This document shows positions 27,053 through 54,393 of a DNA stretch of 64,000 nucleotides, piece after piece. The stretch comes from Cyanophyceae cyanobacterium (GTDB lineage Bacteria > Cyanobacteriota > Cyanobacteriia > Cyanobacteriales > JBHJGN01). The DNA lies in NCBI GenBank assembly GCA_050331735.1, contig JBHJGN010000024.1, forward strand, positions 1 through 64,000. Reading direction: 5' to 3'. The notes under the pieces were generated by a model. The model was not told the DNA's origin and ran no database searches. It saw nothing but the letters and a program-made list of their open reading frames with translations. Within the stretch, counting starts at the first letter, position 1. Each line of letters opens with the position of its first letter. The translations under genes and the position numbers were made by a program.

Positions 27053-27124
27053 CTCCCCAGGTAGGATTCGAACCTACGACCAATCGGTTAACAGCCGACC
27101 GCTCTACCACTGAGCTACTGAGGA
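27053..27124 (-). tRNA. tRNA-Asn (GTT)
   Basis: Reverse complement TCCTCAGTAGCTCAGTGGTAGAGCGGTCGGCT-GTT-AACCGATTGGTCGTAGGTTCGAATCCTACCTGGGGAG folds as a cloverleaf; CCA not encoded. Confidence 0.98.
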
Positions 27125-32647: not shown

Positions 32648-32759
32648 TCCCATTTCTTAATGGTGATGCGACACAAAAAGAGAGGCTCGCTCCTTTCCCC
32701 CTTCCCCTTGCCCCTTTTCCCCTCCTACACATCTGTAGCTTTACTTGTCAGAAATGGTA
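32648..32759 (-). mobile_element. MITE family A (112 bp)
   Basis: Inverted near-copy of 36840-36951. Confidence 0.8.
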
Positions 32760-35113: not shown

Positions 35114-36595
35114 CTACAGTAACTGATATTTCTCTTGCAGTCCTAACAGCGCTGTTTTGGCTTCATCAGCGTTGTCCGCTAAATTAGCAAACTCGATAAA
35201 CCGCTTCAGTTCCTTGTTCAATAAATTCCGTTCTACTTCCCTGGTTTCGCGCTCTAGCTCTGGCGGCATTACAATCATGTCAAACAGAGTGGCGCCGGTT
35301 TTACCCGCGTGAGGGCGTAAAATCCTGCCGCGTCGCTGAATAAACTGACGCGGATTGCCAGTACTCGCTAAAATTACAGCCGTTTGAATTGACGGAATAT
35401 CGACCCCTTCATCTAAGCAGCGGATGGCGACTAACCCCTGCAATTCTCCCCGTTCAAACTGCTGCCGCATCGCTTCGCGTTCGGCGAGAGGCGTTTGGGC
35501 AGTATAGGTATTGACTCGGTAGCCTAATTCCTTGCCCAAAAGACGAGTCACGGCTTCTAGCTGACGACGTTCGTAAGCCTCAGCCGTCACTAGCCCATCG
35601 CCGCAGTAAAACAGGGTATGATGAGTGTGCAAACGGTTTGCCATGAGCTGTCGTAGGGCGTTAAGCTTGTTGGCCGCAGCCCCAATCAGGCGCGATCGCT
35701 GCATCAATAGCGCCGTTAAAGCGGCGTTGGTTTTCCAGTTGTCATTTTCCGCCATTGCCCAGCCAATTCGCTGAGTGAGCTTAGCGTAGGCAAACGCTTC
35801 GGCGGTCGTCAGCTCTACTAGAACTGGATAGTAACGGTAGTGAACTAATGCCCCCTGCTGAATCGCATCGGCCAAAGTAAATTCCGGCTGCAACACTGCC
35901 CCAAAATAATGTAGCAAGGTATCTGTTCCCTCCTCATCGAAGTATCTTTCTGGAGTAGCTGATAGAGCTAATCGAAGGCCGATACTGCGCGGCAAGCTCG
36001 CTTCTAGGCGAGGAGAACCAAGATTATGGGCCTCGTCGCCGACAATTAACGTTTTTTCTGGAAAAAACCGAAGCTGAGACTGAAATCCTTCCCCGATGAG
36101 CGTTGAGTTCGTAGTAATAATCGTCAGGAAAGGTTGGCTATTGGAAGTGACGTTGTATAATTCCGTAGAAAGTTGGCTTTGCCAGTGACGAACGTTTTCA
36201 AACGCCAAGACTGGTTTTAGAGCAAATTTCTCGCACTCTCTAGCCCACTGAGTGACGAGATGGCGATGCGGACAGAGAACGAGGAGCACCTGTAAACCGA
36301 TTTTCTGGTACAGTTCTGTGGCAATAGCGAGGGCAGTGATGGTTTTACCACTCCCCGTGGCCATCTTTAACGTTCCCCGTCCCCGGTTTTTGAACCAACT
36401 AACAACGGCTTGCTGCTGATACGGACGCAGGGCGATCACCGCCGGAAATCTTGGCCGTCCTGACGGTTTGTGCTGGTAATACCCACCTAACTCGGCAACT
36501 TTTGTCGGTCGTTGAGCAACATCCCGGGCTAGCCGATCCCAGTCTAGCTCAGCGATCCGATTGAACTGAAGACGAGCAACGAGGTCTTGGTTCAT
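35114..36595 (-). CDS. SF2 helicase resembling the 'DNA phosphorothioation system restriction enzyme' (ResIII-like) family
   Basis: LRPYQ, GTLKMATGSGKT, DEAH, LSATPER, CLDEGVDIP, QRRGRILR. Confidence 0.8.
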   Translation of the reverse strand: MNQDLVARLQFNRIAELDWDRLARDVAQRPTKVAELGGYYQHKPSGRPRFPAVIALRPYQQQAVVSWFKNRGRGTLKMATGSGKTITALAIATELYQKIGLQVLLVLCPHRHLVTQWARECEKFALKPVLAFENVRHWQSQLSTELYNVTSNSQPFLTIITTNSTLIGEGFQSQLRFFPEKTLIVGDEAHNLGSPRLEASLPRSIGLRLALSATPERYFDEEGTDTLLHYFGAVLQPEFTLADAIQQGALVHYRYYPVLVELTTAEAFAYAKLTQRIGWAMAENDNWKTNAALTALLMQRSRLIGAAANKLNALRQLMANRLHTHHTLFYCGDGLVTAEAYERRQLEAVTRLLGKELGYRVNTYTAQTPLAEREAMRQQFERGELQGLVAIRCLDEGVDIPSIQTAVILASTGNPRQFIQRRGRILRPHAGKTGATLFDMIVMPPELERETREVERNLLNKELKRFIEFANLADNADEAKTALLGLQEKYQLL

Positions 36596-36839: not shown

Positions 36840-36951
36840 TACCATTTCTGACAAGTAAAGCTACAGATGTGTAGGAGGGGAAAAGGGGCAAGGGGAAGGG
36901 GGAAAGGGTCAAGTCTCTCTTTTTGTGTCGCATCATCATTAAGAGATGGTT
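36840..36951 (+). mobile_element. MITE family A (112 bp)
   Basis: TAA|TACCATTTCT...AGAGATGGTT|TAA with an internal AAGGGG tract; copies at 32648 and 60057. Confidence 0.8.
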
Positions 36952-37049
36952 TAACTTCATTAAAGCAGCGAAGCTGCGGGAAAAGGGGAAAGGGTTAAGG
37001 GAAAAGGTCTTGACAGTTATCAGTTAACAGTTATCAAATCAGCTAGTTA

Positions 37050-37184
37050 TACCATTTACCGAAAGTAGTCAGATAGTTCCTTAAACTCACCAAGCATTGG
37101 AGGTTCAAGGGCAAAGAGCTGCTGTGCTTCCCTTTCCCCTTTCCCCCAACTCATCAAGTCTCCTATTACTTTTTCTAATTGGTA
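37050..37184 (+). mobile_element. MITE family B
   Basis: TTA|TACCATTTACCGAAAGTA...TACTTTTTCTAATTGGTA|TTA; near-identical to 63783-63924. Confidence 0.85.
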
Positions 37185-37226
37185 TTAGTTTGGTCACTGT
37201 TTCCCCTTTCCCCGTCCCGCAGGAAC

Positions 37227-40200
37227 TTACAAAGCTTGCCTAATCCACTGATGGGCTCGGTTTGGTCTTGCTTGGAACCCAAAACGATGCAGGAGCTCAA
37301 CGATTTTGCTTTCTGTCACTCCTGTGCTCATGGCGGCACGTTTCACGTCGAAGCGAACCTGAATCGGCAAATGCTGCCGTTGCTGGGCCAAGAGTTCGTT
37401 CATCTCATCACGGAGCGAATCGCGAACGGCAATATACTGATTTGTGAGCGGGCTTTTGATGCGTTCTACTGCCGTCTGGACAGCCTGCTCAATTGCGCCA
37501 GTATTATCTACCATTGTCAATTCGTGCTTTGCTCCCATCGCGATGAGGCGATCGTAGATGCAGCGAATCATCTCAAAATGGTCCTGATAGCGCTTGGCAT
37601 CTCGATGCACGGCTGTTTGGGCGCGGCGAGCAAAATGTTGATAATGCTGGTGACGTTCGACTTGAACCACTAGCCAGTCGATATTGAGCAGCTCAAACAG
37701 TCTCTCTGCGAGTAATCCTGGCATCAGTACCACTCCTTCTAGAAGAGCAGAGGTATTTTGTTTGTGTAAGCGTTTGACTAACCCGGCAACCCCAATGGTG
37801 GTGAGAATCGCTTGGCAGTAGTAGGACTCCAGGCTGCCCTCAAACGAAGATTGGTAGAGACCGGGAAAAGCGCGAGCCGCCTCCTCTCCAAATAGAAACT
37901 CCAAAATTGCTTTAGTATTAGCTCGTCCCGCCTCATCGGTAGAAAAGACCTTCTGTATATTGAAGCGCTGTGCGAGGTGCGTACACAGAGTTGATTTGCC
38001 CGATCCGGTAGCTCCGCTTACCAAAACAATCGTTGGTTTTGTAATGTCTTTCCAGCGCGGCAGATCGTAGACCCGCAGCATCACCCCCCGAACGAGCTGG
38101 TAGAGGTCTGCGGCTGAAAATTGATCGCGCATCGGGTCGAGAAGTGCATGGCGATAGAGCGTCGTTTCTAAGCGGTCTTTCAGCGATTTCCAGCGGTGGT
38201 ATTGCTGAAAGTAGGTACTTTCTAAGTGATTAATGTCTTCCTCCCACTCAGCCACCATATTTTCTAGCGGGACTAAATCGAGCGCTGGTTGTTGGGCTTC
38301 GTGTTGAAGCTCGTGATACCAGCGATTGAGCCGCTGAGATGAAGGGGGGTCAGCTTCAGTTTGCCGCAGGTCTTCAAAACAGCGTTCTACGGCTTGCCAC
38401 GGTACCACTCGTACCGACTGCAAAACGAGAAGCTGTTGCAGCAGTTGCTGCATAAATTGCTTGAGTGAAGGCAAATCGTTGACCTTAGTGTGCAGCAGAT
38501 GGAGCAGTGCCTGCACAATTTGCTGATGAGAGACTTCCAAAGCGTTGATGTAGTCGCCAATTTTCCGCTTTAGCTCTGGCAAGAGTTTTTTCTTGAGAAA
38601 AGATTTGCTGTCGTGAAGATTTCCTAAATCAGCAGTCAGTTCCTGCGGCACCTCGGTTTCCTGCCAGGGATAGAGATCCCGATTCTGATCGAGAAACAGG
38701 GCGGAGGTTTCAAAGAGTTCTAGCACCACCTGACGTGCCGTATCGTAGGTATATTCGGGTAAAACAGCCAGGCGATCGATCAGAGCATACTGGCGCTCCA
38801 CGAGCTGACCGAGTTTGAAATGAGTGGTGTACAGTTGTTTGTAATGTTGCTGAATTAGCGTGTAAATGTGCTGATCGGTGAGCAGTTCGCTGATGGATGG
38901 ATGTTGAGCCTGCGCCTGCCAAATCAGCTTTTCATGACGAATGCGAAACGGCATTAGCCGCTCTAGAACCTGCTGAGCCTTCGCGGCTAGAGGCGTTTGA
39001 GAGGCTGTGAGTTCTCGGAGGGTGCGCACAACGTGTTTAAGCTGTTCCTGTTCCAGCAGCTCTTGCACCACACTTTGCTCCTCTAGAGTCTGCCCCCGAT
39101 TCGCATCGTAGTGAATGCCCATGATGCCTTCGCAGGCAAAGGCGCGATCTAGATTTCTCGTTTTGTCATCGATAAAAATGGTTTGCTGAGCAATCTGCTC
39201 GTAGTGCTGCGTCCAAAAGTCGTCCCATTGCTGACGAAAAGAAGCCAAGGCCACCGGAGCATGACCAAGTTCCTTGAGAAAGTGATTGTACTGGGTGAGG
39301 GCCGCTTGAGAGTCGGGGCGATCGCCTGAGGCAAAAGTCGCTCGCCAGAGCTGATGCAGCATCGGATTGGGAAAGTTGACCCCAAGCACCTCTTGAGCAA
39401 ACCGATCGAGGAAAACGTGCTGTTTAAAGGAGCGATAAATTTTAGGATCGGGTTTACTGGCTCCAAAGGTTTCAGAAACAATCGCGACTAGCCCCTGGAG
39501 GTAGTCAAACTCATGCTGGCCGAGGAAGTATTCAATTTTTGCCATAAAGTTGTTGGTTAACCCGTACTGACGAATTCCCAAAAGATTGATGCGGTGCAGA
39601 ACCGAGCGGTTCTCGTGCTTGGCATCGTAATGGCTATAGTAGAGGGTGAGGAAATGACGAATTTCGGCATCCGTAATCTGAATCTGCTTTCCGATTTCGG
39701 CAAAAGCGGTATTAAAGGTTTCAATGGCGTGACGAGCAAACTGTTCGGGAGTGGCCTGACCGATTTTAAGAGCATCATAGTTGACTCCTGGAACCGGCTC
39801 GCCTTTAAAAATGGTGCGCCAAATCTGCGTTAATTGCTCTTGGGGTAACTCACCCCCCTTGTCGTGAGCGTAAAGCTCCACAAAAAATTGATTATGGCCA
39901 TCCATCAACACCCCACCAAAATCCCAGGCGATCGCCGCAGGACTGTGAACGCGCAGCAGCGTTTGTTCTATTCGTTCTAGAGCGTACCGCCTTACCTCCT
40001 CAGGTCCATTCTTGACAAGCTCTAAATATCCAGCAATATATTCTAGTCTGTCGCAATCGTCTTGCTGATAATCAGGTTCTGTCTGTTCTTCGAGCTTGTA
40101 CATTAAGGTCTCAGCCTCGACAACTGGGTTCTGACTCCAATGGCTTAAGAGCCGCTCAACTCTTTGAGCTAGTGGCGGGAGTTGCTGTTGACGTTTGTGA

Positions 40201-40331
40201 TGTAGATAATCCTTCAGCAAGTCCTGAGGAGTTTGCCGTGTCGTTTGCTGCCGCTCGTGGGTTAACAATCGAATTGCCAATATTTGTGGAACCATCACCA
40301 AGCCTGCTCTAAGTATCTCTCTCATTGTCAT
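37227..40331 (-). CDS. 1034-aa fusion: HAD-like phosphatase, long helical region, 2-phosphoglycerate-kinase-like P-loop domain
   Basis: HAD motifs WDFGGVL, LTNN, SKPDPKIY, FIDDK; C-terminal IVLVSGATGSGKST...VFSTD, LLEGVVLMPG, VDN. Confidence 0.75.
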   Translation of the reverse strand: MTMREILRAGLVMVPQILAIRLLTHERQQTTRQTPQDLLKDYLHHKRQQQLPPLAQRVERLLSHWSQNPVVEAETLMYKLEEQTEPDYQQDDCDRLEYIAGYLELVKNGPEEVRRYALERIEQTLLRVHSPAAIAWDFGGVLMDGHNQFFVELYAHDKGGELPQEQLTQIWRTIFKGEPVPGVNYDALKIGQATPEQFARHAIETFNTAFAEIGKQIQITDAEIRHFLTLYYSHYDAKHENRSVLHRINLLGIRQYGLTNNFMAKIEYFLGQHEFDYLQGLVAIVSETFGASKPDPKIYRSFKQHVFLDRFAQEVLGVNFPNPMLHQLWRATFASGDRPDSQAALTQYNHFLKELGHAPVALASFRQQWDDFWTQHYEQIAQQTIFIDDKTRNLDRAFACEGIMGIHYDANRGQTLEEQSVVQELLEQEQLKHVVRTLRELTASQTPLAAKAQQVLERLMPFRIRHEKLIWQAQAQHPSISELLTDQHIYTLIQQHYKQLYTTHFKLGQLVERQYALIDRLAVLPEYTYDTARQVVLELFETSALFLDQNRDLYPWQETEVPQELTADLGNLHDSKSFLKKKLLPELKRKIGDYINALEVSHQQIVQALLHLLHTKVNDLPSLKQFMQQLLQQLLVLQSVRVVPWQAVERCFEDLRQTEADPPSSQRLNRWYHELQHEAQQPALDLVPLENMVAEWEEDINHLESTYFQQYHRWKSLKDRLETTLYRHALLDPMRDQFSAADLYQLVRGVMLRVYDLPRWKDITKPTIVLVSGATGSGKSTLCTHLAQRFNIQKVFSTDEAGRANTKAILEFLFGEEAARAFPGLYQSSFEGSLESYYCQAILTTIGVAGLVKRLHKQNTSALLEGVVLMPGLLAERLFELLNIDWLVVQVERHQHYQHFARRAQTAVHRDAKRYQDHFEMIRCIYDRLIAMGAKHELTMVDNTGAIEQAVQTAVERIKSPLTNQYIAVRDSLRDEMNELLAQQRQHLPIQVRFDVKRAAMSTGVTESKIVELLHRFGFQARPNRAHQWIRQAL

Positions 40332-40369
40332 ATACAGACTTCAGACTCGAACAAGTTTCTTCGCCCAAG

Positions 40370-40588
40370 GGAGAAGCCGCTTTCGCGGCGGGAAAAGGGC
40401 AAAGGGGAAGGGGGAAAGGGAGGAATGAATGAGCTTGTTCCTCGGCTCTGTGTTCTTTCCCCGTCCCAGAGGGACTTTCCCTTTCCCCGTTCCGGAGGAA
40501 CAGTTTCCCCTTTCCCCATCCCAGAGGGACTTTCCCTTTCCCGTCGCGTACTTCCTGCGGAAGAACTGCGTAAACGCGACATTTCCTT
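40370..40588. repeat. Family C repeat in the divergent promoter region of the HAD-kinase gene and treS
   Basis: AAAGGGG arm, CTGTGTTCTT core, hairpins GTCCCagaGGGAC and GTTCCggaGGAAC. Confidence 0.85.
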
Positions 40589-40699
40589 GTCAGTATAATT
40601 GGCAAGGGCAGATTAATAGCGTAAGCTAGCGGGTTTTCCTGCTAAATTTGTGTCAGTATCTATTCCTGTGACACTCAATCCTCCAGCAACCAGACAGCT

Positions 40700-43600
40700 A
40701 TGCAACACTCGCTTCTCAAAGACGATCCCCTGTGGTTTAAAGATGCCGTGATTTATGAAGCGCCAGTTCGGGCATTTGCCGACAGCAATGGCGACGGTAT
40801 TGGCGATTTTCGGGGCTTGACAGAAAAGCTTGACTACCTCAGAGATTTAGGCGTGACAGCCGTCTGGATACTGCCCTTTTTTCCTTCTCCGCTGCGAGAT
40901 GACGGCTACGATATCGCTGATTACGGCAACGTTAATGCCATCTACGGTAATTTAGATGACTTTCAAGCGTTTCTCGATGCGGCCCACGAGCGAGGCATCC
41001 GCGTCATTATTGAGTTAATTGTTAACCATACATCCGATCAGCACCCCTGGTTTCAACGGGCGAGAAAAGCTCCCCCCGGCAGTAAGGAGAGAGATTTTTA
41101 TGTGTGGAGCGATACGCCAGATAAGTTTCCAGACGTGCGCATTATTTTCCAGGATTACGAAACCTCTAACTGGGCGTGGGATCCAGTAGCGAAAGCGTAT
41201 TACTGGCATCGCTTCTACTCTCATCAGCCTGATTTGAACTACGACTCTCCAGAGGTCCAGCAGGCAGTACTTAATATTGTTGATTTCTGGCTTCAGATGG
41301 GGGTAGATGGTATGCGTCTAGATGCGGTCCCCTACCTGTGCGTTGAAGAAGGAACGAATTGCGAAAATCTTCCCGGGACTCATGCCTTTCTCAAGAGTTT
41401 GAGAGCGCATATTGACCAGAAATTCCCGAACCGGATGTTGCTCGCGGAAGCGAATCAGTGGCCCGAAGATGCCGCCGCCTACTATGGAGAAGGCGATGAG
41501 TGCCACATGAACTTTCATTTTCCCCTGATGCCGCGCCTGTTTATGGCGCTGCGCATGGAAAACAGCTTTCCGATCATTGATATTTTGCAGCAAACGCCTG
41601 CTATTCCCGATAACTGTCAGTGGGCGCTGTTTTTACGGAACCACGACGAATTGACCCTAGAAATGGTCAGCGATGAGGACCGGGACTATATGTACCGGGT
41701 GTATGCTCAAGATCCCGATGCCCGTCTCAATTTGGGCATTCGCCGTCGGTTAGCTCCCCTACTGGGCAACGATCGCCGACAAATCGAGCTGATGAACGGG
41801 CTGCTGCTGTCTTTACCGGGAACTCCGGTGCTGTACTACGGTGACGAAATCGGCATGGGCGATAATATATACCTTGGCGATCGCAACGGAGTGCGGACGC
41901 CGATGCAGTGGAGCGCCGACCGCAATGCCGGGTTTAGTCGTGCCAATCCCCATCGGCTCTACTTCCCCGTAATTTTAGAATCAGAGTATCACTACGAAGC
42001 AGTCAACGTGGAGGCGCAGCAAAGCAACACTAATTCGCTGTGGTGGTGGATGAAGCGCCTGCTGGCCACGCGGGCGCGGTTCAAAGCCTTTGGTCGCGGC
42101 ACCTTTGAACTCCTGCATCCAGAAAATCGCAAAGTGCTTGCGTTTGTTCGCACCTACGAGGGCGAACACATTTTGGTAGTAGCCAATTTGTCGCGCTTTG
42201 CCCAAACCGTCGAACTTGACTTGACTCCCTTCAAAGGAATGATTCCGGTGGAGATCTTCGGACAAACGAAGTTTCCCGCCATTGACGAATCGAGCTATTT
42301 TCTCAGCATTAGTCCGCACGCGTTTTACTGGTTTACGCTTCAGTTCCAAGATCTCTACCAGCTTCCTTACCCGAAAGCTGAGCCACCGCTGATTACCGTC
42401 AACGGCAAGTGGCAGAACGTGTTTGCCCAAAGCGAAGCTCAAAAGTCTTTAGAATCGAGCCTGTCAGCTTATCTATACTCCTGTAGCTGGTTTGGACGCC
42501 ACCGAACCATCCAATCTACTCACATCATCGAAGCGATTCCCATTGCCTACAAAGATCGAGAAGCGGTGCTGACGCTTGTTCGGGTAGAATACACCGAAGG
42601 AACGCCAGAAATTTACGTGTTGCCTTTCGCCTATGGCACCGCTCATCCAGAAGGGGAAATTGCCAAAATTCAAACGAGCGAAGAGACGGGTGTGTTGTTT
42701 GATGCCTTGGCAGACAAAGACTTTTTAACCATTCCCCTAGAGGCGGTTGCTAAAGAACGAACGTATCAGGGGAAATCCGGTGAACTCAGAGCAGCGGCGA
42801 CGGAAACCTTTGCGTCTCTATCGCAAGCGGTTAGCAATATCACCCCCCATCTGTTCCGAGGAGAGCAAGATAATAGCTCAATCGTTTATGGTGATCGCTT
42901 TATTCTTAAAGTTTATCGTCGAGTGGAAGCGGGCATCAATCCAGACTGGGAACTCGGTCGCTTTTTGACCGAAACCGCTGGCGACCTCGTCGCTCCAGCC
43001 GCGGGCGTGATTCGCTATCATCCCCGACAGGGAGACTGGATCACCGTCGCGGTGCTGCAAGGATATGTTTCCGATACCATCGATGCCTGGTCCTATACAC
43101 TCGATAATTTGCGGGATTATTTCAACCGGATTATGGTCGAACAGACCGCGCTGGATGAGGTTTATCTCCCCGACTCCATGAGAACTGTTCAATCTTTGGA
43201 AATTCCCGATTTTGTCTACGAAAGTATTGGCTCTTATCTCGTTTCGGCCCAGCAGTTAGGACAGCAAACCGCACAGCTCCATATGACTTTGGCCGCTGAA
43301 ACGGACAATCCAAATTTTAAGCCAGAGCCGTTTACCTCTTTCTACCAGCGCTCTATCTACCAATACAGCCGCAATCTTGCCGGACAGGTCTTGCTCTCGC
43401 TCAAAAACCAGCTCGACCAGCTTCCAGAGGCGACGCAGCAGTTAGCTCAAATCGTTCTCAATCGGCAAGCTCAAATTCTAGAGGGCTTTCGCGCTGTGCT
43501 AGATTATAAAATTGCCGCGATGAGAACCCGCTGTCACGGGAAATACCATTTAGGTCAGGTGCTGTATACGGGCAAAGATTTTTTGATCACCGACTTTAAA

Positions 43601-43999
43601 GGCGAAACTAATCGGCCCTTAAGCGAACGGCGGATGAAGCGATCGCCTTTGCGAGACGTAGCGGGTATGCTTCAGTCATTCAACTTTGCTGCTAGACTGG
43701 CTCTGCGTCGAGAACTAGAAAGCGGCATCATGCGTCCAGATAATCTACCGCTAATGGAGCAGTGGAGTCACTTTTGGTATAGCTGGGTGAGCGCAGCCTT
43801 TCTCAATGCCTATCTAACGACTGCCGATCAAGCGGCCTTCTTGCCCAAGTCAGATGCCGAACTCCAGGTGTTGCTGGATGCCTACCTTTTGGAGAAAGCG
43901 ATTCAAGAGTTAAATAGCCAACTCCAGAATCCCCATCCTGAGTGGTTAGACATTGCTCTGCAATGGATTTCTCAACTGCTAGGAGCGGAAAGCGTCTAG
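40700..43999 (+). CDS. treS: Trehalose synthase (maltose alpha-D-glucosyltransferase) fused to a maltokinase-like domain
   Basis: WFKDAVIYE, NHTSDQHPWF, RLDAVPYL, EANQWPED, FLRNHDELTLE; C-terminal EQDNSS, KRSPLRDVAGMLQSF. Confidence 0.95.
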   Translation: MQHSLLKDDPLWFKDAVIYEAPVRAFADSNGDGIGDFRGLTEKLDYLRDLGVTAVWILPFFPSPLRDDGYDIADYGNVNAIYGNLDDFQAFLDAAHERGIRVIIELIVNHTSDQHPWFQRARKAPPGSKERDFYVWSDTPDKFPDVRIIFQDYETSNWAWDPVAKAYYWHRFYSHQPDLNYDSPEVQQAVLNIVDFWLQMGVDGMRLDAVPYLCVEEGTNCENLPGTHAFLKSLRAHIDQKFPNRMLLAEANQWPEDAAAYYGEGDECHMNFHFPLMPRLFMALRMENSFPIIDILQQTPAIPDNCQWALFLRNHDELTLEMVSDEDRDYMYRVYAQDPDARLNLGIRRRLAPLLGNDRRQIELMNGLLLSLPGTPVLYYGDEIGMGDNIYLGDRNGVRTPMQWSADRNAGFSRANPHRLYFPVILESEYHYEAVNVEAQQSNTNSLWWWMKRLLATRARFKAFGRGTFELLHPENRKVLAFVRTYEGEHILVVANLSRFAQTVELDLTPFKGMIPVEIFGQTKFPAIDESSYFLSISPHAFYWFTLQFQDLYQLPYPKAEPPLITVNGKWQNVFAQSEAQKSLESSLSAYLYSCSWFGRHRTIQSTHIIEAIPIAYKDREAVLTLVRVEYTEGTPEIYVLPFAYGTAHPEGEIAKIQTSEETGVLFDALADKDFLTIPLEAVAKERTYQGKSGELRAAATETFASLSQAVSNITPHLFRGEQDNSSIVYGDRFILKVYRRVEAGINPDWELGRFLTETAGDLVAPAAGVIRYHPRQGDWITVAVLQGYVSDTIDAWSYTLDNLRDYFNRIMVEQTALDEVYLPDSMRTVQSLEIPDFVYESIGSYLVSAQQLGQQTAQLHMTLAAETDNPNFKPEPFTSFYQRSIYQYSRNLAGQVLLSLKNQLDQLPEATQQLAQIVLNRQAQILEGFRAVLDYKIAAMRTRCHGKYHLGQVLYTGKDFLITDFKGETNRPLSERRMKRSPLRDVAGMLQSFNFAARLALRRELESGIMRPDNLPLMEQWSHFWYSWVSAAFLNAYLTTADQAAFLPKSDAELQVLLDAYLLEKAIQELNSQLQNPHPEWLDIALQWISQLLGAESV

Positions 44000-44003
44000 C
44001 TTA

Positions 44004-44193
44004 ACGCCTGCGGCGTTGGGGAAAAGGGCAAAGGGGAAGGGGGAACGGGATGAACTAGACAGCTTGTTCCTTAACCCTGTGTTCTTGACCTGTCCCGTGC
44101 TTCCTGCGGAAAAACTGCGTAAACGCGACATTTCCCTTGCCCCTTTCCCCGTTCCGGAGGAACAGTTTCCCCCTTCCCCGTCCCTACGGAACA
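44004..44193. repeat. Family C repeat, same orientation as the 40370 copy
   Basis: Shares CTTCCTGCGGAAxAACTGCGTAAACGCGAC and GTTCCGGAGGAAC with the 40370 copy. Confidence 0.85.
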
Positions 44194-45063
44194 CTAAACG
44201 ATTTTCCGAACAATTGGGAAGCCCACACTCACCCGAGTGCCTTGAGCGGAGGACCGAAGCTCTAGCCTGCCTCCGTGGGCTTCTACGATCTGTTGAGCGA
44301 TCGCTAAACCGAGTCCGTTGCCGTCTGGTTTAGTGGTCAAAAATGGCTCGGTGATGTGGGGCAATAGCTCTGGAGCGATCGGCTGGCCGCCGTTCGAGAT
44401 GCTGACCCACGCTTGCGCTGCGTTGATGTCAATGCGCCAGCTAACGTCTTCTCCCGGGGAAATCGCTTCACAGGCGTTGCTGGCCAAATTGATGAACACC
44501 TGCTTGAGCTTGTCGCGATCGCCTTTGACCCAAACTGCCGTCGAGGGACTGACAAAACGCATGTTGCGCTCTGAGGCCACTGGTAAGGTCAAAACCAGGT
44601 TCAGAGTGTCTCTGATGAGCTTGTTGAGTTCGAGCTCGTGACGCTGAAGCACCAGCGGTCTAGCATAGAGCAAAATCTCGTCTACGAGTCTTTGTAAGCG
44701 TTCTGCTTCTTCTAAGGCGAGCGCCAGTCGGTCTTTTGCTGCTTCTGGCAAGGTTAACTTTTGGCAGGCGGACAGTCCCAGTAAAATCGTTGTCAGAGGA
44801 CTCCGCATTTCATGAACAATTGTGGTTGCCTTAGCCCCAATTTTCGCTAAACGGGCAGTGGAATCAGGAGCTTCTAATTCCACATCTGGTGCGTGTTCTG
44901 GTTGCTGAGTCCTCTCTGGGTAGAATTGTTCGTCTAAGTGAGCTGGCACACCGGAGCTGCCTCCGGTGTGCCAGTTGTTTCCCGCCGTCTCACGGCGGGA
45001 AAGGTTGGCACCGGAACTTTGAGCTTTGGCTGCCCTTTGCTGATCTGGCATTCGGTTCTTCAA
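44194..45063 (-). CDS. Histidine kinase without a recognisable sensor domain
   Basis: VHEMRSPL H-box, KLKQVFINLASNACEA, EPFLTTKPDGNGLGLAI. Confidence 0.88.
   Translation of the reverse strand: MKNRMPDQQRAAKAQSSGANLSRRETAGNNWHTGGSSGVPAHLDEQFYPERTQQPEHAPDVELEAPDSTARLAKIGAKATTIVHEMRSPLTTILLGLSACQKLTLPEAAKDRLALALEEAERLQRLVDEILLYARPLVLQRHELELNKLIRDTLNLVLTLPVASERNMRFVSPSTAVWVKGDRDKLKQVFINLASNACEAISPGEDVSWRIDINAAQAWVSISNGGQPIAPELLPHITEPFLTTKPDGNGLGLAIAQQIVEAHGGRLELRSSAQGTRVSVGFPIVRKIV
44941..45024. repeat. 84-nt palindromic repeat (family D) lying in-frame within the kinase ORF
   Basis: Two hairpins; inverted near-copy at 46263-46351. Confidence 0.85.
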
Positions 45064-45217: not shown

Positions 45218-45829
45218 TCAAGCTACTGAGGAAGTATTTAGCCTAATAGAGCGTCCTGAACGAGTGATGCTGCCTTCCTGCTCTAGACGCTTAAGGGCAC
45301 GAGAGAGGGTTTCAGGAGTGAAACCTAGTTCGGTCGCGACATCTTTTAGGGGGCTATCCAAGGTAATAACGTTGTCGTTGGAGCGAGCCAGATAACGCAA
45401 GTACTGATGAACCCGTCGATGAGCTGTGCGCATATCTTGTAACTCCAGCCGCACATAGAGAGCCTGAATTTTGAAGGCGAGTTTGGCGATGAGATCTTCT
45501 GCCAATTCTGGGTAGTCGCGGAGGGTAGGGAGTAAAACTGGCTTAGGATAAACAATCACCTGAGACTCGGTATCGGCGATCGCTGTACAAGAGTAGCTAT
45601 CCGCGACGAGGGCTTCTTCTCCTAAACTGTCACTCTGGCGAGCAACTTGTAACAAAGCGACTCGCTCTTCCAAGGTATTGCGAATGAGCCTGACTCGTCC
45701 AGTGTTTAACATGAAAAAAGCAGTAGCTACATCCCCCTGGCAAAAAAGAGATTGTCCGTCGACAAGGTTTTGGATAGTAACAGCTTGGCGTAAAGTAAGC
45801 GGGAGGCTGGCCGGACTCAAAAGATCCAT
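45218..45829 (-). CDS. Crp/Fnr family transcriptional regulator (different subfamily from the CECY group)
   Basis: LFCQGD, GRVRL, SLGEEAL, HTH KDVATELGFTPETLSRALKRLEQEG. Confidence 0.92.
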   Translation of the reverse strand: MDLLSPASLPLTLRQAVTIQNLVDGQSLFCQGDVATAFFMLNTGRVRLIRNTLEERVALLQVARQSDSLGEEALVADSYSCTAIADTESQVIVYPKPVLLPTLRDYPELAEDLIAKLAFKIQALYVRLELQDMRTAHRRVHQYLRYLARSNDNVITLDSPLKDVATELGFTPETLSRALKRLEQEGSITRSGRSIRLNTSSVA

Positions 45830-46059: not shown

Positions 46060-46174
46060 AGTTGGGGGAAAGGGGAAGGGGTAAAGGGGAAAGGGAAGCA
46101 CAGCAGCTCTTTGCCCTTGAACCTCCAACTCTTGGTTAGTTTGGGAACTATCTGACTACTTTCGGTAAATGGTA
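46060..46174 (-). mobile_element. Truncated, inverted MITE family B copy
   Basis: GAAGCACAGCAGCTCTTTGCCCTTGAACCTCC...CTACTTTCGGTAAATGGTA|TTA is the reverse complement of the 37050 element's left part. Confidence 0.82.
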
Positions 46175-47136: not shown

Positions 47137-49137
47137 TTAAGATTCTCGTCCAGTAGCCCAGCGATCGCGCCACTTAACCGTTCCTTCACTAGCGATTACC
47201 CAGCGGCGACAGACCAAGTTTTCCCGCAGCGGAGATTGTCCGGCTCGCCAGATGGCATATTTGTAGGCAATCAGTTGACCGACACTTTCTTCAAAGGGAA
47301 TCTCACCGAACCAGGTATTGGAGTTGATGTATTCTAGCGGATAAGCTTTAGCAATATCCCAGTTCCCTAATTCTGGGCAGTCTCCGGTGACGACGACGGT
47401 TTCTCCCGGTTGAGTCTGTACGCCGTTAAGCTGAACGCGCACAATCGTTTGTCCTTTCACCCGTTCTCCCACATGACTGAGAACAATCACCTGTTTCGAG
47501 TCGAGGGCCAAATTGTAGAGATGTCCGTCCTCTACTTCCAGCTTGTTCACCGACATTACATCCGTGTGTTCTCCATTCGGTAACTCGGTGTCAACGGCTT
47601 CAACGGTGGTTGGTTCTCCCCGGTTCATCGCCACAAATAGCACCGAATCTCGATAGCGACGCACATAGCAGTACACGTCAGGAGTAATGTATTTTTGCCA
47701 CTGACCGCCCATAGAAACGGCGGGATTCAGTCGCCGCAACCCAGAAAGGAGGCGAATCTCCCGATAGATATCGGTATCAGCATCCCAGGTCTCCATCATT
47801 GGGCGGTTGTAGGGATCGTTATTGCCGTAGGGATTGCTGTCGCCATTGGTATCGTTGTGCAAGTACTGTTCTGTACCGTAGTACAGACAGGGAATCCCGC
47901 GAGCCGTCATCACGAAAGCTACGGCCAAACGCAACGCGTCTGGGTCGGGGTTGAGGGTTTGGAACCGATGCATGTCATGATTGTCGATAAAAGTGACGAG
48001 TTCAGTCGCGCCGTCGTAGCGATCATCAAGATCGAGAATGTCCTGAACTAAGTAGAAACCTTGCTCATCGTAAGTGCCCAAAGCCTGACGAACGGCCATC
48101 GCCAAGCCAAAATCCAAGAGCGTAATCCCAGCATTGTTGGCAAATTCTACAGAACGCTCGTCTTCAGGATGGTTGTAGATCCATTCCCCAAACATAAACA
48201 CGTCTGGTCGATGGGACTGAATATCGGCGCTGAACTCTTGCCAGAACCAGATTGGCATGTGTTTGACAGTATCAATCCTCAGGGCATCTACGCCCCGGTC
48301 TAGCCACTGCTTGATGGCCGATTTAATATAGTTGCGATACTCAGTATTATTTTCATTGAACGTTGCTAACCCAGAGAGTTCGCCGTTTTGCACCTGCCAC
48401 TCGTCTTCCCAATTCGTGATGATGCCGTAGTGGTGATACCAGCCGTTGTTGTCGTTGTTAAAGTCGGCAATTTTCACGCCATCGTCGTAGAGTTCGCCTT
48501 TTTTGCCGCTGAAATCAGGATTACTATGGTTACAAACGATGTCTAAAATTAGCTTCATGTTCCGCTGATGTAGTTCATCAATCAGGCGGTCGAAGACAGT
48601 ATTTCGGGTTTCCTGTGTTTTGTTGAGGGAAGGCTCTTCTCCTTTGGCAATGTAGCGCTGGTTGAGACGTTTAAAATCTTTGGTCCAGTAACCGTGAATG
48701 GCGGCTTGCTCAATAAATAAAGCTTCGACTTGTTCAAACAAGGGCGTTAACCATAAGGCGGTCACGCCCAAGTTTTTTAAATAGTCCAGCTTATCGATGA
48801 TTCCTTGCAAATCTCCGCCCCAGTATTTACCCCAATCTTGCTGTTCTGGATCGTATAGTTCCGGGTTTGGTCCCTCGCTATTATTGGGGTCTCCATCGTA
48901 GAAACGGTCTACCACCACAAAATAAATGGTTTCTTGGCGAAACTCAATATCTCTGGTGTAGAGAAAGTCAAGGTCTACATCGCTTTCTGGTGGGGGTTCG
49001 GTAACGAGCGTTTCTACCTTCGCGTCCGCTTCTGGTTGAGGAACTTCGTACTGAGAGCGGGACGATCTCAGAGTGGGGTCTGCTGTGGATGGGCTAGCCT
49101 GAGCTTGAGAAGGATCGGAGGGAGGATGTGCAACCAT
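47137..49137 (-). CDS. GH13 alpha-amylase / CGTase-like enzyme with C-terminal CBM20
   Basis: IYFVVVDRF, GGDLQGII, LRIDTVKH, FGEW, FIDNHD; GDCPELGNW starch-binding domain. Confidence 0.9.
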   Translation of the reverse strand: MVAHPPSDPSQAQASPSTADPTLRSSRSQYEVPQPEADAKVETLVTEPPPESDVDLDFLYTRDIEFRQETIYFVVVDRFYDGDPNNSEGPNPELYDPEQQDWGKYWGGDLQGIIDKLDYLKNLGVTALWLTPLFEQVEALFIEQAAIHGYWTKDFKRLNQRYIAKGEEPSLNKTQETRNTVFDRLIDELHQRNMKLILDIVCNHSNPDFSGKKGELYDDGVKIADFNNDNNGWYHHYGIITNWEDEWQVQNGELSGLATFNENNTEYRNYIKSAIKQWLDRGVDALRIDTVKHMPIWFWQEFSADIQSHRPDVFMFGEWIYNHPEDERSVEFANNAGITLLDFGLAMAVRQALGTYDEQGFYLVQDILDLDDRYDGATELVTFIDNHDMHRFQTLNPDPDALRLAVAFVMTARGIPCLYYGTEQYLHNDTNGDSNPYGNNDPYNRPMMETWDADTDIYREIRLLSGLRRLNPAVSMGGQWQKYITPDVYCYVRRYRDSVLFVAMNRGEPTTVEAVDTELPNGEHTDVMSVNKLEVEDGHLYNLALDSKQVIVLSHVGERVKGQTIVRVQLNGVQTQPGETVVVTGDCPELGNWDIAKAYPLEYINSNTWFGEIPFEESVGQLIAYKYAIWRAGQSPLRENLVCRRWVIASEGTVKWRDRWATGRES

Positions 49138-49341
49138 AGATTTTTTAAAGTACCTGGAACACAAAACGATGTCTCCTAAGATTACAAAATTTTACAAATT
49201 ACCGAAATACATCTTTGGATAGGAGAATAGGCAGTCGCCACCAGTCGGCTCAACCCCCCAGTGATGAATAGATTTTCATTAAGATTAAGATAGTAGAGGA
49301 ACCAGCTCTCGTCGCCGATTAGGGCTACTCGGAGTCTTTCT

Positions 49342-50967: not shown

Positions 50968-52794
50968 TTACGGCTGAGTGGGGACGAGCTGAACTTTGAC
51001 TTTAACTCGCTTGTTGGTCCTTGGGAGCTTGACCGTCAATTTTTCCGCATCATAGTGCGTATAGGTTTCTCCGTCGATTTCGCACCGACCAATTTGAATA
51101 CTGCCGGGGGGCAAAATATCGGGAGACACTCTGAGAATCCCGTCAGGAAAACCCTGGGGAAGAGGCTTGAAGTAAAAGTCTAGCGGTTGTTTAGTAATGA
51201 GTAGGTTGGTATAAACCGCCGCTAGGTAACACAGCTCGGTAGAGTGATAGCTACTCATGGAGTGACTGCCTTTGGTGCGTTCGTTGCCGTTTGCTAAGTA
51301 GGGAATTCCGTTCGCCAGCACGTTGAAATACACTCCTCCATCTTCAGTATCTAGAAACCAAGCATTATAGAAAGCGGCGGCTTCGCGAGCTAGCTTGAGG
51401 TAGGCTTGATTTTGCTGACTGCCCGCGAGGATTAGATAAGCTAAGATTGCCTGTTCCTGCTGCCACCAAGCTTTGCGATCGTGCCAAACAAAGCGATGCT
51501 GCTTTTCCCCAGGTTTAAGCAACCGCTCCACTACGTCATACCAGCCACCGCGTCGGCGATCGCAGCCCACAGACGGCAATAGCTCGGCCAGTTGCTGAGC
51601 TAAAGTTAGATACTGCTCTTTGGGTCGGAGATGGTACATTCTCATCAGATTCCAAACAAGCTTCAGATTGTGACCGACGACAGCGCGATTTTGCTGCCAG
51701 CCCCAAGCAAGATCGCTGGACCAATCCTCATTGAATCGTTCCTGAATAAACGGACTCTGCTCTCGGTTAGGAAAATAGGTGCCGAGCAGATCGAAGGTGT
51801 CCTCTAGCATCTCGGCGTATTCAGGGTTGCCAGTCGCTAACCACAGGTTGATCAAATACGCCGGGGCATGGTCACCGATGGAGTTCCAGTTTTTTTTGGC
51901 CCGATTGCACCCCAAAGCCTCGCTGCGGGGATCGAGCGTGACCGGATCGAGGTGAGAAAAATAGCCGCCGGAAGCGCTGCGATCGCGGAAAAACCGATTA
52001 AAGAGTTGCAGGGTCAGTTCGGCATCGTGCAAAATCTGCGGGTCGCCCGTTAGTCTGTAGGTCTGTACTGGTCCCGCCAGGGCATAAATCTGTTCGTAGG
52101 CCGGGATAGCATCGTAGTCATCGCCAAATTCCGAAGTAAAAAACTTGTGCTCTTGCTCTCCTTCAATATCAATTCCGTGATACCAGTAAACAACATTTTC
52201 GTCTAAGTCTAGAAACCGCATGTGGTCTCGCAGATACTCGACCCCTTTCTCGGCAGCGTCTAAAAAGCGTTCCTCTCCGGTCATTAAGTAAGTTGTGGCT
52301 AATCCGTAGACGAGACGAGAAATCGTGCCAGTTTCCTGGCGAAAGTTAACCGACGATTTGGCTCCCAATAAATTGAGAACCGTGCGATAGCTGGAGTAAT
52401 CAATTTCTCGAAGACCCAACTGAGATCTCAGGTAGAAGTTTCCCAGCGAGTGAAGCTGGTCGAGCCACCAGTTGGGAGCTTCAAACCGGTAGTTATCCGC
52501 TTGACGACCAACAAACACAATTTTTTTGACTTCAAACTGGACGCTGTCTGGATAGAAAATGCCGTAGGCAAACAGATAGCGGGGAGCAACCAGCATGGCT
52601 CTTAGAGAAGCTGTCGCATCCGGACAAGCCTCATCAAGATTCTGCAAGAGCTGAGCGGAGGTCATCGGGCTAAGAACGCACTGAAATTTCCGTCCGTCTG
52701 AGGTTTCAAGCCCAAAGATGTCGTTGTCTCCGTCGTAGTGGGTCACGTAACCAGAAACGAGGTCAGAAAAGGCACAATCTATGTTGATTCCCAC
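50968..52794 (-). CDS. AGE family epimerase/isomerase
   Basis: SRLVYG, YEQIYALAG, NWNSIGDHAPAY, GHNLK, WWQQEQ, KGSHSMSSYH. Confidence 0.85.
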   Translation of the reverse strand: MGINIDCAFSDLVSGYVTHYDGDNDIFGLETSDGRKFQCVLSPMTSAQLLQNLDEACPDATASLRAMLVAPRYLFAYGIFYPDSVQFEVKKIVFVGRQADNYRFEAPNWWLDQLHSLGNFYLRSQLGLREIDYSSYRTVLNLLGAKSSVNFRQETGTISRLVYGLATTYLMTGEERFLDAAEKGVEYLRDHMRFLDLDENVVYWYHGIDIEGEQEHKFFTSEFGDDYDAIPAYEQIYALAGPVQTYRLTGDPQILHDAELTLQLFNRFFRDRSASGGYFSHLDPVTLDPRSEALGCNRAKKNWNSIGDHAPAYLINLWLATGNPEYAEMLEDTFDLLGTYFPNREQSPFIQERFNEDWSSDLAWGWQQNRAVVGHNLKLVWNLMRMYHLRPKEQYLTLAQQLAELLPSVGCDRRRGGWYDVVERLLKPGEKQHRFVWHDRKAWWQQEQAILAYLILAGSQQNQAYLKLAREAAAFYNAWFLDTEDGGVYFNVLANGIPYLANGNERTKGSHSMSSYHSTELCYLAAVYTNLLITKQPLDFYFKPLPQGFPDGILRVSPDILPPGSIQIGRCEIDGETYTHYDAEKLTVKLPRTNKRVKVKVQLVPTQP

Positions 52795-54163: not shown

Positions 54164-54328
54164 TTGTTAGGCCAACCGAAGAAGACAGCGATAACAATCA
54201 CTATTCCAGCAGCATTTCTTGACTTTTCCTCTAAACCAGCTAGCGCGACTGTGTTTCAGCTAGAAGAGGCAATGATCGCAGAAATTGACCAGGCGTTCAA
54301 CGCTGGGGCGTTGTCTTCCGAAGAGTGA
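54164..54328 (+). pseudogene. Truncated 5' copy of a PEP-CTERM amidase gene (54 codons)
   Basis: MLGQPKKTAITITIPAAFLDFSSKPASATVFQLEEAMIAEIDQAFNAGALSSEE* aligns with the N-terminus of the 56274 gene; upstream DNA is also similar. Confidence 0.8.
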
Positions 54329-54393
54329 GTGCAGCCCTACCTCGCAAAAAGATGAGCCAAACAACTGCCCTACAATTTTTGAGAAGAAACTCA

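Follow-up and report, generated by a model that had tools for sequence, protein, structure and literature searches.

A cyanobacterial protein combining a capped HAD phosphatase-type domain with a kinase domain of the 2-phosphoglycerate kinase family, encoded divergently from treS

The open reading frame at positions 37227-40331 (reverse strand) of contig JBHJGN010000024.1 (assembly GCA_050331735.1, Cyanophyceae cyanobacterium) encodes a five-part protein composed of a helical N-terminus, a HAD-IA domain, a helical domain, a P-loop kinase domain and a C-terminal domain, and the catalytic residues of both the phosphatase-type and the kinase domain are conserved in its homologs. Throughout this work, the window is the whole stretch of DNA analysed, that is, positions 1-64,000 of the forward strand of this contig (64,000 nt). 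We tentatively regard the protein as a cytoplasmic enzyme with two activities, kinase and phosphatase, that would act on small molecules, perhaps a phosphoglycerate-like metabolite, with opposing logic. The gene does not seem to be part of a treS system, and its adjacency to a gene for a TreS-maltokinase fusion looks accidental.

Table 1. Features of the open reading frame and of its surroundings in the window
Feature	Residues	Coordinates	Strand	Basis
Whole ORF	1-1034	37227..40331	-	single frame, 1034 aa from first ATG
N-terminal helical extension	1-130	39942..40331	-	alignment, AF2 helices
HAD-IA phosphatase-type domain	131-418	39078..39941	-	PF00702, alignment, AF2, Foldseek
All-helical conserved domain before kinase	419-760	38052..39077	-	AF2, BLASTP; no Pfam family
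P-loop small-molecule kinase	761-965	37437..38051	-	NCBIfam, conserved columns, Foldseek
C-terminal domain (about 70 aa)	966-1034 + stop codon	37227..37436	-	alignment, AF2
Divergent intergenic region, ORF to treS-mak		40332..40699		repeat and promoter scans
TreS-maltokinase fusion gene		40700..43999	+	TIGR02456 899 bits (cut-off 678), TIGR02457 391 (cut-off 375)
GH13-CBM20 enzyme		47137..49164	-	window ORF scan
AGE-family protein		50968..52794	-	window ORF scan

Reading frame and structural models

The single frame of 1034 aa reported in the preliminary description is a real protein-coding frame. Its true start is probably M13 (position 40295, giving 1022 aa), because the database entry for this same protein (P0002, 1022 aa) begins there; in the family alignment, the long-form homologs also begin at the position aligned with M13. 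Sequence searches against the PDB returned nothing usable, with no match at E ≤ 0.01 for the A1 profile and best E values of 0.2 for the HAD piece and 0.1 for the kinase piece in the searches by domain. The AF2 model of the whole protein was mediocre (pLDDT 68.6, falling below 50 in residues 257-294 of the HAD core), and therefore the HAD domain was refolded alone. With the whole-protein model, Foldseek recovered the kinase fold, together with spurious long helical matches, and nothing else.

The HAD phosphatase-type domain

The Pfam model PF00702 (cut-off 26.4) scored 25.5 bits on the full-length protein and 29.2 bits on the HAD domain alone. Folded separately, the domain reached a pLDDT of 90.7 and a pTM of 0.86, with all four motifs placed at the ends of core strands, and a Foldseek search with it gave 56 hits in the PDB at E ≤ 0.001, with YihX, soluble epoxide hydrolase (sEH), 3cnh and BT2542 at the top of the list. 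We assign the domain to the HAD superfamily, phosphatase-type, subfamily IA, within a group formed by YihX and the N-terminal domain of sEH, as judged from sequence and model; the per-domain check with AlphaFold and Foldseek proposed beforehand gave YihX and the sEH phosphatase domain as the nearest solved structures.

The HAD motifs that the preliminary description called complete are present, comprising D137 in WDFGGVL, T259-N260-N261, K293 in SKP and D388-D389, all of them invariant in 21 of 21 aligned members. The word complete calls for one correction, in that motif I is of the DxG type and not the canonical DxD: the general acid/base aspartate expected two positions after the nucleophile in DxDxT is replaced by G139, which is invariant in the family, and the same position holds G, G or A in the three distant HAD copies. 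The nucleophile D137 lies at the end of strand 133-137 in the AF2 model and is invariant in 24 of 24 sequences once distant members are added. Constraint is strong: a block of 14 residues around D137 is invariant, and K189, K293 and D388 are still invariant once the distant P0026 and P0032 are included.

The DxG motif fits the YihX subgroup, because E. coli YihX (HAD4) has the same glycine. The two domains share fold and cap type (Foldseek to 2b0c, E 1.4e-6, TMt 0.70), and an alignment brings all four of their motifs into register, among them D-x-G (motif I) and F-x-D-D-x-x-x-N (motif IV), whereas their identity is only 22%. Moreover, unlike YihX, the domain described here is fused to a kinase, has a cap longer by about 25 residues and contains a four-helix insertion of about 65 residues between motifs III and IV (within residues ~296-383). 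The extra cap residues bear the family-specific invariant motif NYDALKIG, which includes K189, in a helical C1 cap spanning residues ~147-250. In HAD proteins a large C1 cap goes with a small substrate, so the cap argues for a small substrate here as well. That DxG-type HAD proteins include sugar-1-phosphatases, as had been stated, agrees with the type member of the YihX-like group, a specific alpha-glucose-1-phosphatase that is active with its DxG motif (PMC4251788).

The P-loop kinase domain

The claim of a P-loop domain resembling 2-phosphoglycerate kinase (2PGK) stands: the NCBIfam model PRK04220 matches residues 760-964 with E 1.4e-28, at 100.1 bits against an equivalog cut-off of 343. 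Together, PRK04220, PRK12337 and PRK12338 match residues 760-979 with E values from 1e-28 to 1e-19, PRK12337 attaining 86.5 bits where its equivalog cut-off is 603. At such scores the domain falls outside 2-phosphoglycerate kinase sensu stricto (EC 2.7.2.16), and by sequence we place it, as a member falling far short of the equivalog cut-offs, in the 2PGK family (COG2074) taken broadly. The Walker A motif is G773-x-x-G776-x-G778-K779-S-T, followed by S797-T-D799-E and by the Walker-B-like L-L-E865-G-V, so that the GxxGxGK(S/T) signature, the T-D pair after strand 2 and the hhhhEG element, the latter being the Walker B form of COG2074-type kinases (PMC6417671), are all intact. Across 165 kinase domains, 15 of the 17 columns conserved at ≥ 80% are kept, the exceptions being G802 in place of R (with R803 adjacent) and Q858 in place of E.

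In the fold check, Foldseek matched this domain to small-molecule P-loop kinases (shikimate, gluconate and adenylate kinases) with probability 1.0. AAA_33 appeared with E 0.077 only, and an Atlas feature search with residues 425-1034 returned only generic P-loop/2PGK clusters at 0.85-0.87, where 0.9 is the meaningful level. The protein shares the P-loop kinase core with 2PGK of Methanothermus fervidus and other COG2074 members, its best NCBIfam matches being 2PGK models, but it is bacterial and lacks an ATP-cone N-terminus (the match begins at model position 83), having helical, HAD and C-terminal domains instead. Mevalonate-3-phosphate 5-kinase and the LPA1-type proteins of plants also belong to COG2074, and the known substrates of the family are very few, namely 2-phosphoglycerate (2PG) and mevalonate-3-phosphate.

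It could be argued that only one of the two domains is catalytic and that the other, HAD or kinase, serves as a ligand-sensing or regulatory module, which would make the protein a single-activity enzyme under regulation, given that the second aspartate of motif I is missing in all members and in 3/3 distant HAD copies and that two conserved kinase columns are altered. We consider this unlikely, since Walker A, T-D and E-G are intact, the other catalytic residues of both domains are invariant in a family whose members share 53-69% overall identity, and YihX works with the same DxG motif (PMC4251788, in the part cited above). The reading of the protein as a phosphatase plus a kinase thus holds at the level of predicted catalytic residues, which both domains keep.

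Helical and terminal regions

The region between the two enzymatic domains had been taken for a helical linker of about 300 aa. It is indeed helical in the AF2 model (pLDDT mostly 70-90, length about 330-340 aa), but it is a conserved domain that travels with the kinase and not a mere spacer: of 152 more distant proteins with the kinase, 16 also have a recognisable counterpart of residues 426-690, and Pfam gave no match to it. In the N-terminal extension, residues ~1-85 occur in only some members and residues 90-130 are conserved in all; no Pfam match was found, and none of the 152 more distant proteins matches it outside the family. The last 45 residues of the C-terminal domain are predicted to form a strand-helix-helix-strand-strand arrangement, with F994, D995, R998, F1017-G-F1019 and W1029 invariant in the family alignment. 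Pfam found no match in the C-terminal 80 aa. The domain is specific to the cyanobacterial family, outside which only 1 of 152 proteins, the fragment P0029, matches it. The HAD insertion is, with the helical and C-terminal domains, one of three unannotated conserved regions defined here.

Giant relatives in uncultivated bacteria

Giant multidomain proteins from uncultivated bacteria, namely P0026, P0027, P0030, P0031, P0037, P0043 and P0048 (2401-6541 aa), contain the module formed by the helical domain and the kinase, at 26-37% identity; BLASTP alignments spanning residues ~424-1015 show 26-30%. For P0027 the source gives the name Candidatus Omnitrophota. Compared with the ORF, these giants have the modules repeated, in other orders and joined to PPDK_N (PEP-synthase-type ATP-binding) domains. 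P0027 contains two helical-kinase modules and a phosphoglycerate mutase domain (504 bits against an equivalog cut-off of 330.65), a fusion found in 1 of 8 giant relatives, which is a hint, at the sequence level, of a link to phosphoglycerate; a xylose-isomerase-like TIM barrel occurs once among them. Domain scans revealed no carbohydrate-active domain in the distant relatives, and we found no giant relative that has been characterised.

The special HAD type, with DxG/A and the cap motif NYxALKIG, is present in only 3 of the 152 more distant proteins (P0026, P0032 and P0043), all three of which also carry the kinase, in different domain orders. Among the 150 best matches from 1.84 billion representatives, no stand-alone close HAD homolog was detected. 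The predicted HAD and kinase types therefore co-occur recurrently. In P0034 and P0035, a different, IIB-type HAD before the kinase module was suspected by eye from an N-terminal DIDDTL motif and from TIGR01484 (E 9e-5), a lead dropped because Pfam at E ≤ 0.1 gave no support.

Gene neighbourhood

The neighbours are as first described, with treS-mak divergent from the ORF and the genes for the GH13-CBM20 enzyme and the AGE-family protein within 13 kb. The intergenic region holds copies of a G/A-rich repeat common across the window and no promoter-like match; promoter and terminator scans around the ORF stayed at or below chance level, and Rfam identified only a tRNA at 27053-27124. This arrangement suggested that the protein could be a partner of TreS-maltokinase, that is, a maltose-1-phosphate or glucose-1-phosphate phosphatase with a kinase that would tune trehalose/glycogen flux under stress, and the nearest solved HAD structure, the alpha-glucose-1-phosphate phosphatase YihX with its identical DxG motif, together with the suitability of a HAD devoid of the general acid for glycosyl-1-phosphates, speaks in the same direction. 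Synteny with treS, set beforehand as the point to be examined, told otherwise: in four homolog loci with flanks of 6.8-10 kb, two of them from one genus (a further locus, L002, was left out as too short), TreS, maltokinase, GH13 and AGE were found in none, either by tblastn or by Pfam searches of 26 flanking ORFs. In addition, YihX is only 22% identical, the kinase is not of the sugar-kinase type, and the distant relatives are fused to PEP-synthase-type or mutase domains instead of carbohydrate-active ones. Such a partnership is thus quite improbable, and the proposed coupling to trehalose/glycogen stress metabolism found no support in these loci, which corrects a tempting yet unsupported link. 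At locus L001, UDP-glucose dehydrogenase and epimerase genes lie nearby, pointing to sugar-nucleotide metabolism and not to trehalose/glycogen; taken together, the four neighbourhoods support no pathway.

The next gene downstream on the same strand encodes a helicase-type DNA phosphorothioation restriction protein. A HAD phosphatase and a P-loop kinase are likewise united in one polypeptide in T4 Pnk and mammalian PNKP, and end healing by a HAD 3'-phosphatase and a P-loop 5'-kinase, perhaps together with this helicase-type protein, would suit the domain composition as well as the winged-helix-like order of secondary structure that AF2 predicts in the C-terminal domain. Nevertheless, we regard this as very improbable, since PNKP phosphatases are capless whereas this HAD has a large C1 cap and a second insertion, the kinase falls in the 2PGK family and hardly resembles AAA_33, the helicase-type gene is absent from all homolog loci (tblastn) and, beyond a gap of 630 bp, is served by a promoter-like site of its own, and the PADLOC match is only P-loop-sized. 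Membership of the PNKP group, which calls for a DxDxT HAD lacking a cap and for a PNK-type kinase, was accordingly rejected for a protein with a capped DxG HAD and a 2PGK-family kinase. An anti-phage defence protein was rejected as well, the only PADLOC match being mad8 (25 bits) over residues 760-794, which correspond to the P-loop.

Proposed function

In the two-activity reading that we tentatively favour, the kinase, together with the helical domain, would phosphorylate a small acidic phospho-metabolite at a hydroxyl, with ATP as donor of the gamma-phosphate, the best guess being conversion of 2-phosphoglycerate to 2,3-bisphosphoglycerate (2,3-BPG), or a close analogue. The capped HAD would remove a phosphate with the help of Mg2+, D137 becoming an aspartyl-phosphate, and probably prefers substrates whose leaving group is good (an acetal, anhydride or acyl phosphate), because it lacks the general acid at Asp+2, like YihX. 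Both activities may jointly set the level of the phosphorylated metabolite, and the helical and C-terminal domains may serve assembly or regulation. A comparable logic is known from 6-phosphofructo-2-kinase/fructose-2,6-bisphosphatase, in which one chain combines an adenylate-kinase-like P-loop kinase with a phosphatase and sets the level of fructose-2,6-bisphosphate; the likeness is a works-like analogy only, as the phosphatase of that enzyme is a histidine phosphatase and not a HAD, and the sequences are unrelated. If both domains do act on one metabolite, the protein would represent a new kinase/phosphatase switch of stress-tolerant cyanobacteria, and it would also offer a way to approach the giant multi-kinase proteins, so far unexplained, of Omnitrophota-type bacteria.

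2PG is only a guess, because the 2PGK scores are far below the cut-offs and the family includes mevalonate-3-phosphate 5-kinase. A HAD of this kind fits the alkyl phosphates of 2,3-BPG poorly, and therefore the product of the kinase and the substrate of the phosphatase may differ. Opposing activities in one chain would also be futile unless regulated, which counts against this interpretation, as do the changes at G802 and Q858, the mutase fusion in a single giant and the pathway-neutral neighbourhoods.

The kinase and the phosphatase could instead catalyse different steps of one pathway, for instance by activating a precursor and by dephosphorylating a phosphorylated solute at the end, as in the synthase/phosphatase pairs of compatible-solute synthesis; they would then not work against each other on a single metabolite. 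The HAD is without the general acid expected for the likely alkyl-phosphate product of the kinase, the giants give a multi-step impression by placing the modules among PPDK_N, iPGM and xylose-isomerase-like TIM barrel domains, and the named hosts of the family are cyanobacteria that we take to be benthic or subaerial, all of which would agree with such a sequential enzyme. We nonetheless judge it rather unlikely, for neither in the window nor in the four flanked loci is an enzyme of an intermediate step encoded next to the gene, and literature searches found no cyanobacterial solute that needs a kinase of the 2PGK type.

A bolder extension of the two-activity reading, and an improbable one, is that the HAD-helical-kinase proteins and the giants belong to an unrecognised bacterial route for a di- or poly-phosphorylated glycerate-type metabolite, a counterpart of archaeal 2,3-BPG/cDPG. 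In such a route the kinase would add a phosphate, a labile one (anhydride or acetal) would be cleaved off by the HAD, and the helical domain would play a new part in regulation or assembly. To our knowledge, no cDPG pathway is known in bacteria, and in a scan of 40 other ORFs of the window none was named as a cDPG synthetase partner, although Pfam may contain no cDPGS model.

Distribution of the family

The architecture had been described as unrecognised, and our literature searches indeed found no published characterisation of this phosphatase-kinase fusion, but about 24 close homologs already exist in databases under automatic names. All the named ones, such as that of Pleurocapsa sp. PCC 7327, are from cyanobacteria.

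Domain organization of the fusion protein

The 1034 codons of the preliminary description are present as one open frame at 37227-40331 (-), and the GC content around it (0.48-0.51) is the usual composition within the window. Since P0002, the database copy of the protein (1022 aa, identical to it), begins at M13 and long-form homologs start at the aligned position, sequence comparison indicates that the true start is probably 40295; residues are numbered here on the 1034-aa form.

Residues 1-130 are helical in the AF2 models, with no Pfam family and no match outside the fusion family among 152 more distant proteins. They are followed by the HAD domain, for which PF00702 scored 25.5 bits with the full-length protein, slightly under the cut-off of 26.4, and 29.2 bits with the domain alone. 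The motif residues D137, T259-N-N, K293 and D388-D389 are unchanged in a family alignment of 21 members including the window protein, drawn from the 24 matches of a word-indexed search, leaving out P0002 and the short, probably fragmentary P0023, P0024 and P0025; D137 lies in a 14-residue block, IAWDFGGVLMDGHN, invariant in this alignment. The HAD motifs had been called complete, which holds for these residues but not for motif I, whose canonical second Asp is replaced by Gly.

Folded alone with 24 sequences, the HAD domain gave a confident model (pLDDT 90.7, pTM 0.86), in which every motif is placed where a core strand ends C-terminally. Six helices make up the C1 cap (about residues 147-250), and motifs III and IV are separated by an insertion of four helices (about 296-383), which is unusual. 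Foldseek comparison of this model with the PDB (56 matches at E <= 0.001) bore out a phosphatase-type fold, the best match being E. coli YihX (2b0c, E 1.4e-6, TMt 0.70; also 8pne and 8pno), followed among the leading matches by the soluble epoxide hydrolase (sEH) phosphatase domain, 3cnh and BT2542. Within subfamily IA, the domain belongs to the YihX/sEH-N group and has two additional insertions. YihX of E. coli K-12, 22% identical in the alignment, has the same Gly in its motif I (D-L-G-N-V), and its motifs II-IV align with those of the window HAD. According to PMC4251788, YihX is an active, rather specific alpha-glucose-1-phosphate hydrolase (kcat/KM 565-fold over Glc-6-P), and therefore the absent Asp+2 is no argument for a dead HAD.

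Residues 419-760, for which no Pfam family was found, are all-helical (pLDDT mostly 70-90 in the AF2 model of the whole protein) and had been taken for a linker of about 300 aa. In BLASTP, residues ~425-990, comprising this region and the kinase, align as a single block with 26-37% identity to relatives, often present twice per giant protein, and the helical part alone (426-690) was recognised in 16 of the 152 more distant proteins, the kinase in all 152. On sequence comparison, the supposed linker is thus a domain conserved within a kinase subfamily.

The assignment of a 2PG-kinase-like P-loop domain was confirmed by NCBIfam matches to PRK04220 (E 1.4e-28), PRK12337 (1.4e-24) and PRK12338 (1.4e-19), all far under the equivalog cut-offs; the mevalonate-3-phosphate 5-kinase model matched at E 2e-7. 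When 165 kinase domains of 148 more distant proteins are compared, 17 columns are at least 80% conserved, and the window protein retains 15 of them, including Walker A, T798-D799, R854, G866, P871, H896, R903 and R910, the departures being G802 (R in the family; R803 is adjacent) and Q858 (E in the family). The fold resembles shikimate, gluconate and adenylate kinases (Foldseek). The domain belongs to the broad COG2074 family without being a 2PGK equivalog. Beyond it lies a conserved C-terminal piece; a strand-helix-helix-strand-strand order is predicted for its last 45 residues, and its sole match outside the fusion family, in the 152 proteins searched, is the fragment P0029.

Distribution and relatives

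The 24 proteins of the word-indexed search are 53-100% identical and nearly all full length, and the organisms that their sources name are the cyanobacteria Pleurocapsa, Coleofasciculus, Myxosarcina, Scytonema, Hydrococcus and Brasilonema. Their automatic names are "2-phosphoglycerate kinase", "HAD family hydrolase", "hypothetical protein" and "2-phosphoglycerate kinase/FMN phosphatase YigB".

An exhaustive HMMER scan covering 1.84 billion representatives yielded 460 proteins at E <= 1e-3, 21 of them at E <= 1e-30; past the fusion family's own two representatives, the best matches are giants of 2401-6541 aa and some proteins of 360-1250 aa. The window HAD type occurs in only three of the 152 more distant proteins (P0026, P0032 and P0043), each time with the kinase in the same chain and with differing domain order (kinase then HAD in P0026, kinase-HAD-helical-kinase in P0032). 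Their motif I reads D-L-G-G, D-L-G-Q or D-L-A-G and they share the NYxALKIG cap motif of the window HAD, K189 of which is invariant in all 24 sequences of the alignment including these distant members. Among the best 150 of the 460 matches, no close relative of this HAD occurs as a stand-alone protein.

The giants P0026, P0027, P0030, P0031, P0037, P0043 and P0048 are from uncultivated bacteria; in them, PEP-synthase-type ATP-binding domains are found together with the special DxG HAD and with helical-2PGK-like modules, which number from one to several. Family scans, which took in neither P0030 nor P0043, detected PPDK_N, the domain that binds ATP in PEP synthase/PPDK; in P0026, P0027 and P0037 it ends no more than ~25 residues from where the helical-kinase module begins. 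P0027, according to its source a Candidatus Omnitrophota MAG protein, terminates in a phosphoglycerate mutase domain (TIGR01307, 504 bits; equivalog cut-off 330.65), a fusion seen in one of eight giants. P0048 carries a PEP-utilising mobile domain and a xylose-isomerase-like TIM barrel, and P0026, from a hydrothermal-vent metagenome, has an N-terminus resembling a signal peptide.

Genomic context

Features of the fusion protein, the window and the homolog loci
Feature	Position	Strand	Evidence
HAD domain	residues 131-418	-	PF00702, AF2, Foldseek
P-loop kinase, 2-phosphoglycerate-kinase family	residues 761-965	-	NCBIfam, conserved columns, Foldseek
Conserved C-terminal piece	residues 966-1034	-	alignment, AF2
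Helicase-type DNA phosphorothioation system restriction enzyme (next same-strand gene)	35114-36595	-	TIGR04095
TreS-maltokinase fusion (divergent)	40700-43999	+	TIGR02456, TIGR02457
GH13-CBM20 enzyme	47137-49164	-	scan of window ORFs
AGE-family protein	50968-52794	-	scan of window ORFs
G/A-rich repeat arrays	9296-9463, 14080-14182, 18157-18291, 32691-32722, 36877-37213, 40390-40543, 44018-44179, 46065-46095, 63863-63887		
L001 neighbours: PAS-GGDEF-EAL, tRNA methyltransferase, UDP-glucose dehydrogenase and epimerase, FeoB			Pfam
L003, L004 (both Brasilonema) neighbours: HtpG or fatty-acid desaturase, unknown 318-aa ORF, sigma factor			Pfam
L005 neighbours: aminotransferase, molybdopterin oxidoreductase, PAS-GAF kinase			Pfam

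The carbohydrate genes reported around the ORF are all present, namely the divergent TreS-maltokinase (TIGR02456, 899 bits, cut-off 678; TIGR02457, 391 bits, cut-off 375), the GH13-CBM20 enzyme and the AGE-family protein. A scan of genome contigs gave five homolog loci, of which L002, on a 3.9-kb contig, has no flanks, leaving four for synteny, two of one genus. In tblastn, 19 window proteins matched in the five loci only the fusion protein itself and one generic histidine-kinase ATPase, and Pfam analysis of 26 flanking ORFs revealed a different neighbourhood in each locus. Linkage to TreS, maltokinase, GH13 or AGE genes is therefore found in none of the four flanked loci, so that the proposed treS-coupled system containing the fusion protein is not supported; sugar-nucleotide genes lie near the homolog in one. 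In L001 (Hydrococcus MAG), a frameshift or assembly error divides the UDP-glucose dehydrogenase beside the homolog, at 12993-14292 (-), between two ORFs that overlap, 13699-14292 with the N-terminal domain and 12993-13802 with the central and C-terminal ones.

The restriction enzyme gene (TIGR04095, 655.5 bits, cut-off 600) is separated from the ORF by a 630-bp repeat-rich gap with a promoter-like site, and its product was absent from the other homolog loci by tblastn. It also matches PADLOC PbeA (E 1.6e-159, model positions 241-681 of 682), the N-terminal third being missing and a stop lying upstream at 36620; a scan of nearby ORFs revealed no dnd or pbe partners. The G/A-rich repeat (GGGGAAAGGG and one-mismatch variants, ~7-nt periodicity) forms arrays, often inverted pairs, mostly between listed ORFs, with copies flanking the fusion gene on both sides. 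Its 60 matches in the window (4.6 expected) were reached by none of 100 shuffles, and it resembles a short repeat dispersed over the whole genome, not specific to the fusion gene.

Proposed function

In the protein, two catalytic domains that belong to known superfamilies retain their key residues and a conserved helical domain accompanies the kinase; this HAD type and this kinase type co-occur repeatedly and independently. Because the HAD cap is large and the kinase fold is of the small-molecule type, both domains may act on small molecules. The kinase substrate could be a small hydroxy-phospho-acid, for which 2PG would be the best guess from the family match and the single phosphoglycerate mutase fusion. 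The absent Asp+2 suggests that the HAD substrate may have a good leaving group, and the domain would favour a labile phosphate; 2,3-BPG itself is an ill-suited substrate for a HAD that lacks the general acid. The two activities may be functionally coupled, either at two steps of one route or, as we prefer by analogy with PFK-2/FBPase-2, as opposing reactions on one metabolite.

Knowledge of the kinase family is thin, and comprises archaeal 2PGK, which functions in cDPG synthesis (10.1101/2025.02.21.639460), and plant LPA1, a member with no established substrate (PMC6417671). No description of a HAD-2PGK fusion was found in the accessible literature on 2-phosphoglycerate kinase with haloacid dehalogenase or cyanobacteria. 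The protein is of interest chiefly because its helical-kinase module is conserved and recurs in giant proteins.

Other features of the window

There are four Crp-family regulators in the 64 kb, at 72-839 (-), 15884-16573 (+), 16756-17502 (+) and 45218-45829 (-), the last adjoining a small histidine kinase (44194-45063) directly downstream of treS-mak. A two-partner-secretion pair (a 947-aa TPS-domain protein and a ShlB/FhaC-type transporter with POTRA) and then a 915-aa TPR-CHAT protein are encoded at 6428-9271, 9561-11354 and 11300-14047 (+). A Uma2-family endonuclease-like protein at 26284-26847 (-), matching the PADLOC candidate system PDC-S03 (E 2.1e-70), adjoins a tRNA gene (27053-27124). 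Three tandem paralogous amidase genes lie at 54325-56028, 56274-57980 and 58096-59796 (+) (PF01425, E 8e-85 to 1.5e-104), and 60256-62886 (+) encodes an 876-aa fusion of a CLC chloride-channel protein with CBS and universal-stress-protein domains.
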